Positions 44,306 to 44,935 of a stretch of 64,000 bases of DNA are shown piece by piece. The DNA is taken from NCBI RefSeq assembly GCF_003334385.1, contig NZ_QOWN01000010.1; one strand, written 5' to 3'. The number at the start of each line of letters is the position of its first letter. The first letter of the stretch is position 1. A program made the position numbers and the translations under genes. A model generated the notes under the pieces. It did no database searches. It was not told the origin of the DNA and saw only the letters and a list, made by a program, of their open reading frames with translations. This DNA is from Escherichia coli (GTDB taxonomy: Bacteria > Pseudomonadota > Gammaproteobacteria > Enterobacterales > Enterobacteriaceae).

Positions 44306-44935
44306 ATGAAAAGCCTCTCCTATAAGCGGATCTATAAATCACAAGAATACCTGGCAACGTTGGGCACAATTGAATACCGATCATTGTTTGGCAGTTACAG
44401 CCTGACCGTTGACGACACGGTGTTTGCGATGGTTTCTGATGGTGAGTTGTATCTTCGGGCTTGTGAGCAAAGTGCACAGTACTGTGTAAAACATCCGCCT
44501 GTCTGGCTGACATATAAAAAGTGTGGCCGATCCGTTACCCTCAATTACTATCGGGTTGATGAAAGTCTATGGCGAAATCAACTGAAGCTGGTGCGTCTGT
44601 CGAAATATTCTCTCGATGCAGCGCTGAAAGAGAAAAGCACGCGCAATACCCGGGAAAGACTGAAAGATTTGCCCAATATGTCTTTTCATCTGGAAGCGAT
44701 TCTCGGGGAGGTGGGGATTAAGGATGTACGGGCGTTACGTATACTTGGGGCAAAAATGTGTTGGTTGCGACTGCGGCAGCAAAACAGTCTGGTGACAGAA
44801 AAGATTCTGTTTATGCTTGAAGGTGCCATTATCGGCATTCATGAAGCTGCGCTCCCGGTGGCACGCCGCCAGGAGCTTGCAGAATGGGCTGACTCTCTTA
44901 CGCCGAAACAGGAGTTTCCTGCGGAACTTGAGTAA
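44306..44935 (+). CDS. sxy: Competence regulator Sxy (TfoX), 209 aa
   Basis: ORF 209 aa beginning MKSLSYKRIYKSQEYLATLG. Confidence 0.95.
   Translation: MKSLSYKRIYKSQEYLATLGTIEYRSLFGSYSLTVDDTVFAMVSDGELYLRACEQSAQYCVKHPPVWLTYKKCGRSVTLNYYRVDESLWRNQLKLVRLSKYSLDAALKEKSTRNTRERLKDLPNMSFHLEAILGEVGIKDVRALRILGAKMCWLRLRQQNSLVTEKILFMLEGAIIGIHEAALPVARRQELAEWADSLTPKQEFPAELE

Follow-up and report, generated by a model that had tools for sequence, protein, structure and literature searches.

The 38-bp overlap of the convergent genes sxy and yccS in Escherichia coli, a probable remnant of a collapsed intergenic spacer

The 3' end of the phage lambda cII mRNA has a complementary RNA, OOP, which can trigger RNase III cleavage and lower the expression of the regulator that the mRNA encodes; OOP is a dedicated short RNA with a promoter and a terminator of its own. 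In E. coli, complementary 3' ends are widespread among genes that face each other. Convergent CDS overlaps number 75 (Huvet and Stumpf 2014, PMC4161906), and 276 of 370 convergent operons (75%) have complementary 3' ends, with a mean overlap of 286 nt (Conway 2014, PMC4161252). The overlapping pairs, which include torT-torR, zapC-ycbX and yccX-tusE, lie on opposite strands, originate via movement or loss of stop codons, and have short, out-of-phase overlaps whose length differs from species to species. Convergent excludons (Conway 2014; ExcludonFinder 2025; the Listeria concept) are likewise opposite-strand neighbours with transcripts complementary at their 3' ends, and are defined by the exclusion of one gene's expression by that of the other. 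A further class, the overlapping bidirectional terminators (Ju et al. 2019; bioRxiv 10.1101/2022.10.23.513370), resembles the locus described here in the convergent pair, in the shortness of the junction and in a hairpin that may form at the overlap.

The locus in question is the junction of sxy and yccS. The CRP-S regulon, which serves DNA uptake in E. coli, has Sxy as its master co-activator. No natural inducing signal of Sxy is known, and any new input into its expression would therefore be of interest. In E. coli, Sxy is controlled by transcriptional positive autoregulation via cAMP-CRP and a CRP-S site, and by Lon proteolysis (Jaskolska and Gerdes 2015, as described in papers citing that work). 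Control at the level of the mRNA is documented in H. influenzae, where a stem in the 5' part of the mRNA is involved, and in V. cholerae, where TfoR and Hfq are. An initial annotation of this DNA took sxy to be regulated mainly post-transcriptionally; this premise comes from the latter two organisms and does not describe E. coli, where CRP-S autoactivation and Lon proteolysis are the controls reported. A search with a palindromic CRP-S pattern did not locate the sxy promoter site, which is consistent with the asymmetry of CRP-S sites in E. coli.

Compared with other convergent overlapping pairs of E. coli, sxy-yccS shows no essential difference, except that one partner is a well-known regulator. 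Compared with excludons, the overlap of its transcripts is forced by the geometry of the coding sequences and not by long UTRs.

Geometry and identity of the overlapping genes

The window analysed is a stretch of 64,000 nucleotides of E. coli DNA (RefSeq assembly GCF_003334385.1, contig NZ_QOWN01000010.1), and positions are given in its numbering unless stated otherwise. From about 20,700 onward it aligns collinearly with MG1655, shifted by 165 bp and with only a handful of base differences; the offset changes upstream of ~20.7 kb, hence an indel relative to MG1655 lies somewhere before that point.

In the ORF listing of the window, a plus-strand ORF at 44306..44935 encodes 209 aa and ends with a TAA stop at 44933-44935, and a minus-strand ORF at 44898..47060 encodes 720 aa counted from the first ATG and ends with a TAA that is the reverse complement of 44898-44900. 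The two share exactly 44898..44935, a tail-to-tail overlap of 38 bp, as the initial annotation had stated and as RefSeq also gives it. Read codon by codon, the overlap comprises, for each gene, 11 complete sense codons, the TAA stop and 2 nt of a further codon, and the two frames are offset in such a way that the overlap length modulo 3 is 2. On the Sxy side it covers residues 198 (part) to 209 and the stop, and on the YccS side residues ITQVPQETPVSA (I only in part) and the stop. The description of the last 12 codons of each gene as antisense to those of the other is therefore accurate only if the stop is counted as a codon, the sense codons being 11.

The plus-strand ORF is sxy (tfoX), named 'CRP-S regulon transcriptional coactivator Sxy' in RefSeq, and its product carries the Pfam domains TfoX_N (residues 14-106) and TfoX_C (116-194). 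The minus-strand ORF is yccS, which encodes a putative inner-membrane transporter of the FUSC family ('YccS family putative transporter' in RefSeq) with matches to FUSC-like, FUSC_2 and FUSC, the last of these ending at residue 685 of 720. The start of yccS (47051-47060) varies between records, with PGAP using the first ATG (720 aa, MAFMLSPLL...) and the RefSeq record of MG1655 a start three codons later (717 aa). Upstream of yccS on the same strand lies yccF (47070..47516, minus strand; ORF and RefSeq annotation). The two genes form the yccF-yccS operon, named as such in Conway 2014 (PMC4161252), from which any antisense transcription entering sxy originates.

The sxy/yccS stretch was found in 5426 of 5426 complete E. 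coli genomes, with both genes annotated by RefSeq. The same 38-bp overlap is present in the RefSeq annotation of strain E2865, of MG1655 (sxy at 1021138-1021767 and yccS at 1021730-1023883 in MG1655 coordinates) and of the most divergent E. coli record found (91% identity). The pair is thus a convergent overlapping gene pair in the full sense, with genes on opposite strands, 3' coding ends that share nucleotides and Pfam domains in both proteins. It is hardly conceivable that the coding overlap is an artefact of annotation, with one of the tails untranslated in reality. Such a view could appeal to the lack of conservation of both tails and their position outside recognised domains, but stop codons, unlike starts, leave annotation no choice. 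Moreover, both frames are open and joined to conserved, domain-bearing sequence up to the listed stops, and protein alignments of 29 junctions, described below, required no frameshift in any of them, so that both frames are genuine up to their stops.

The overlap is also already annotated and catalogued, and is neither rare nor new. The sxy and yccFS units are drawn as converging operons in Conway 2014 (PMC4161252), and ExcludonFinder 2025 (PMC12288877) places sxy-yccS among 165 convergent 'excludons', each present in at least 50% of 58 MG1655 transcriptomes. In 100 kb of MG1655 annotation around the locus, coding sequences overlap at 4 of the 17 convergent junctions, namely zapC-ycbX (4 bp), sxy-yccS (38 bp, the longest of the four), yccX-tusE (4 bp) and torT-torR (28 bp). 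The ExcludonFinder entries for the same 100 kb are exactly these four pairs, which indicates that an excludon call follows here from geometry and is not independent evidence of read-through. For a pair whose coding sequences already overlap, such a call adds little independent evidence.

Two of the other listed pairs also lie in the window. The zapC/ycbX overlap occupies the 4 bp at 29659-29662 and the yccX/tusE overlap the 4 bp at 53507-53510, with interlocked stops CTAA and TTAA, respectively, and both are on the ExcludonFinder list.

Variation and constraint at the junction across Enterobacterales

Junctions were compared in a set of 29, the window included, which was gathered from a genome scan for Sxy, look-ups of Sxy homologues and look-ups of distant cluster representatives. 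The scan relied on Sxy peptide patterns and left out Klebsiella, Serratia and other genera, a gap that was partly filled from the cluster representatives. In all 29 junctions sxy and yccS are convergent, and the order ycbZ-matP-ompA-sulA-sxy-yccS-yccF-helD is kept. The spacing is tiny throughout but not constant, the extremes being an overlap of 47 bp and a gap of 44 bp. The overlap is 38 bp in Escherichia, including E. fergusonii and the cryptic clades, 41 bp in E. albertii, 47, 32, 23 or 11 bp in Citrobacter species, 14 bp in Salmonella, 35 bp in Intestinirhabdus, 44 bp in Enterobacter and Lelliottia, 26 bp in Tatumella and Rosenbergiella, and 4 bp in Enterobacteriaceae bacterium ESL0689. 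Gaps are found in a metagenomic contig (2 bp), in Yersinia ruckeri (36 bp) and in a contig with a Chimaeribacter-type Sxy (44 bp). Throughout the Enterobacteriaceae, ESL0689 excepted, the overlap length modulo 3 is 2. At least six positions of the sxy stop and three of the yccS stop occur among the 29 junctions, and hence the stops move.

As judged by protein alignments, conservation ends at ...RRQELxEW in Sxy and at ...LLPEIxRLQxQI in YccS, and beyond these points the proteins vary in both length and sequence. The tails are the least conserved part of Sxy and of YccS alike, and both are located outside the Pfam domains.

Two observations were made on individual sequences in the course of this comparison. 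The Sxy of E. fergusonii is 69% identical to that of E. coli, as against 90% for E. albertii, and is thus about as distant as the Sxy of Citrobacter, and yet the locus, its synteny and the 38-bp overlap are the same as in E. coli; fast divergence or allele replacement could explain this. Contig NZ_VLXZ01000190.1 (276 bp, coverage 1.1), from an assembly of the Bacillota species Alkalicoccobacillus porphyridii, is 99% identical to E. coli sxy and almost certainly reflects contamination of the assembly with E. coli DNA.

In the window, a segment of 46 bp (44888..44933) separates the conserved core of Sxy from that of YccS; it begins after W194 of Sxy and ends before the ...LQRQI block of YccS. 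The overlap falls within this segment, and both ORFs run through it until a stop is reached. Variability per column was derived from a DNA alignment of 19 Enterobacteriaceae junctions. In the Sxy core it amounts to 0.16, 0.14 and 0.34 at codon positions 1, 2 and 3, and in the YccS core to about 0.13, 0.07 and 0.42, respectively. This strong bias of the flanking cores towards the third position is the signature of purifying selection on the proteins. In the 46 bp between the cores, the corresponding values are 0.33, 0.34 and 0.30 in the Sxy frame and 0.33, 0.30 and 0.34 in the YccS frame. Variability is thus flat in both frames, and the segment accordingly evolves like an unconstrained spacer. 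An AlphaFold2 model of Sxy built with 36 sequences has a mean pLDDT of 91 and a last helix at residues 185-198; residues 199-209 are without predicted secondary structure, and the final block (201-209) has a pLDDT of 57. Alignment and model both point to little detectable protein constraint on the dual-coded stretch in either frame.

The overlap to be expected by chance was estimated by replacing the 46 bp with composition-matched random sequence or with shuffles and running each frame to its first stop. With these random and shuffled spacers, the genes overlapped in 86% of trials and by at least 38 bp in 72-73%, and the median overlap was 89-95 bp. Overlaps are this frequent and this long because stops are sparse in the frames concerned: per codon, there are 0.041 stops in the sxy frame where it continues into yccS, and 0.025 in the yccS frame where it continues into sxy. 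Given the value of 86%, the overlap of sxy and yccS is not above chance. Both stops lay within the spacer in 29% of trials, versus every Enterobacteriaceae locus examined, the lineages being non-independent. If anything, selection would appear to keep the tails short, with both stops inside the spacer, rather than to create the overlap.

Transcript ends at the junction

A consensus scan of positions 43900-47700 revealed no canonical intrinsic terminator at the junction or within about 190 nt of either stop. The region holds six terminator-like sites, no more than expected from shuffles, and all of them are away from the junction. The junction thus lacks the GC-rich stem-loop and following U-tract of an intrinsic terminator, as well as the preceding A-tract of a bidirectional one, and the RNA past each stop folds no better than shuffles (z = -0.37 and -1.58). 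A terminator can, however, sit inside the coding sequence of the partner gene, and Rho classically acts on antisense RNA that is left untranslated beyond a stop codon. The earlier statement that neither gene can have its own terminator is therefore borne out as to a canonical intrinsic terminator at or near the junction but overstated in its general form, since a terminator may lie in the partner CDS and Rho may act. The accompanying claim that transcription of one gene must pass into the other is sound, as each mRNA has to hold at least 38 nt complementary to the other in order to reach its own stop.

Two features of the minus-strand RNA lie beyond the yccS stop. A GC-rich hairpin, GCUCCUGG...CCGGGAGC (44851..44876, minus strand), is located inside sxy, 22-47 nt past the stop; it has no U-tract and does not qualify as a terminator. 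Further on, 100-240 nt past the stop, a C-rich and G-poor stretch (44660..44797, minus strand) has a C/G ratio of 2.0-2.8 in 78-nt windows and is a candidate Rho-loading region, as judged by base composition. Downstream of the sxy stop the ratio is just 1.1-1.27. Among the portions of the Adams 2021 Term-seq supplements that were searched, no entry corresponds to a 3' end of sxy, yccS or yccF, which is weak evidence.

The same consensus scan gave no sigma-70-like promoter on either strand of 43900-47700, and Rfam at a permissive E-value yielded nothing credible, the only match being a spurious snoRNA (E = 0.46). The locus thus has neither the promoter-like site of its own nor the Rfam family that would mark a dedicated cis-antisense RNA. 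The likeness to OOP lies in RNA antisense to the 3' end of a regulator mRNA, whereas at sxy the antisense RNA would be the end portion of a full-length mRNA, and no promoter-like site was found for it.

In the E. coli sequence, an imperfect hairpin of 16 pairs can be drawn across the overlap (44900..44943); it does not exceed shuffles in stability, is unconserved outside Escherichia and has no U-tract. When placed on the alignment it is 70% paired overall and 60% paired in the sequences from outside Escherichia, as against 29-53% in slid controls, and a few of its positions have compensatory-looking changes, such as C:G, G:C and A:U at one pair. RNAalifold gave no consensus structure over the junction alignment. 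The fold z-scores of the individual species average -1.1 on the plus strand and -0.5 on the minus strand over 23 junctions, with -0.3 and 0.05 for E. coli, and in some species the junction folds with z < -2 on both strands. A conserved hairpin across the overlap was thus considered and rejected: the count derived from E. coli looked suggestive but became weaker when the Escherichia rows were removed, and it found no support in RNAalifold or in the per-species z-scores. Given the 60% pairing and the compensatory-looking changes, a weak structural constraint on this hairpin is possible. In the contig with the Chimaeribacter-type Sxy, the 44-bp spacer is filled by a perfect 10-bp GC hairpin, GGGTAGCCGG-N7-CCGGCTACCC (positions 4131-4157 of that sequence, L026). 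This makes an ancestral shared hairpin conceivable, though one not retained in E. coli, and the hairpin of this contig may represent a shared bidirectional terminator that the Enterobacteriaceae have since lost.

These structures bear on an alternative in which a bidirectional terminator of the SEnd-seq type is embedded in the overlap, its hairpin pausing polymerases that arrive from either side, with the resulting collisions, head-on and trailing, ending both units at a defined site. Both the collision model and the terminator class are described (bioRxiv 10.1101/2022.10.23.513370), and the 16-pair hairpin of E. coli, the perfect hairpin of the Chimaeribacter-type contig and the species with z < -2 on both strands would fit it. 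We nevertheless regard it as very improbable for E. coli. Its junction is no better than shuffles (z = -0.3 and 0.05, and -0.37 for the RNA past a stop), neither an A nor a U tract flanks it, no common structure emerges from RNAalifold, and pairing falls to 60% outside Escherichia. Unlike the terminators of that class, the hairpin here is weak, unconserved and inside coding sequence. In addition, termination driven by collisions needs frequent initiation from both sides (bioRxiv 10.1101/2022.10.23.513370), which is unlikely for two units whose expression we infer to be low.

Upstream of sxy, Conway 2014 reports an antisense transcription unit over sulA (about 43578-44093; sulA on the minus strand) that is on in stationary phase. 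This unit would run on the plus strand towards sxy and could add to sxy transcription or interfere with sulA.

Origin of the overlap and its bearing on Sxy expression

The overlap of sxy and yccS is probably an ordinary remnant of a collapsed intergenic spacer, a neutral architecture in which stops drift through unconstrained tails. Throughout the Enterobacterales, the yccF-yccS operon faces sxy with almost no intervening DNA, and in the Enterobacteriaceae just 46 bp separate the conserved parts of Sxy and YccS. Each frame runs on through a weakly constrained stretch up to its first stop, giving short, variable and unstructured C-terminal tails. With stops as sparse as they are, the tails would usually pass each other, and the length of the overlap, 38 bp in Escherichia, would be set by the current positions of the stops, the overlap sequence not itself being selected. 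As a consequence, the sxy and yccS mRNAs have complementary 3' ends, like those of most convergent operons of E. coli. Termination would most likely occur inside the partner gene, being either Rho-driven, on antisense RNA that is not translated, or else inefficient and diffuse. Next to CRP-S autoactivation and Lon proteolysis, any influence on Sxy is probably minor.

Against this neutral reading, the spacer never exceeds 44 bp across families, and the alignment of Enterobacteriaceae junctions is almost free of indels. The persistent tightness of the junction could reflect selection on the arrangement itself. However, nothing in the way of conserved sequence, structure or promoter suggests a selected antisense function or a special regulatory device at the overlap.

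If the pair were a functional excludon, yccF-yccS and sxy would each lower the expression of the other when transcribed on into the partner, through polymerase collisions or through RNase III cleavage of the 3' duplex, and the positive-feedback loop of Sxy would gain a negative input. ExcludonFinder counts sxy-yccS among its core pairs, those detected in 50% or more of 58 MG1655 transcriptomes (PMC12288877). This and the conservation of the arrangement across the Enterobacterales are in keeping with such a view, and as the natural inducing conditions of E. coli sxy are not known, there is room for further inputs. ExcludonFinder 2025 also reports lower single-cell co-expression for excludon pairs, a result at the level of the class that is silent on sxy-yccS. 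However, for a pair with overlapping coding sequences the excludon call is given by geometry alone, and the overlap sequence is unconserved and without a dedicated antisense promoter. The lack of sxy, yccS and yccF 3' ends from the searched portions of the Adams 2021 supplements also counts, weakly, against an excludon. Overlapping 3' transcripts are found at 75% of the convergent operons (Conway 2014, PMC4161252), for the most part with no function known. The defining feature of an excludon is that expression of one gene lowers that of the other; what RNA-seq studies report for sxy-yccS is the overlap of the transcripts (PMC12288877, PMC4161252). A literature search found no study of expression or perturbation specific to sxy-yccS and none of yccFS acting on sxy, the search term 'yccS' being blurred by unrelated acronyms. 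A functional excludon is therefore considered unlikely; transcription of yccFS might act on Sxy through antisense pairing or collision, with nothing locus-specific in favour of this.

A stronger form of the same idea would treat the tight, terminator-less junction of sxy and yccFS, kept from Escherichia to Yersinia, as a selected coupling device in which transcription of yccF-yccS into sxy, through collision or RNase III, sets the threshold of the Sxy-CRP feedback. This proposal is quite speculative and, in our estimate, improbable; if true, it would help to explain why the competence genes of E. coli are hard to induce in the laboratory.

On the reading preferred here, that of a collapsed spacer, the overlap is a common architecture with freely drifting sequence, and there is no specific reason to expect regulation at this junction beyond that at most convergent operons. 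Where a spacer is very short, an overlap of coding sequences can be just what is to be expected and need not be a designed feature.
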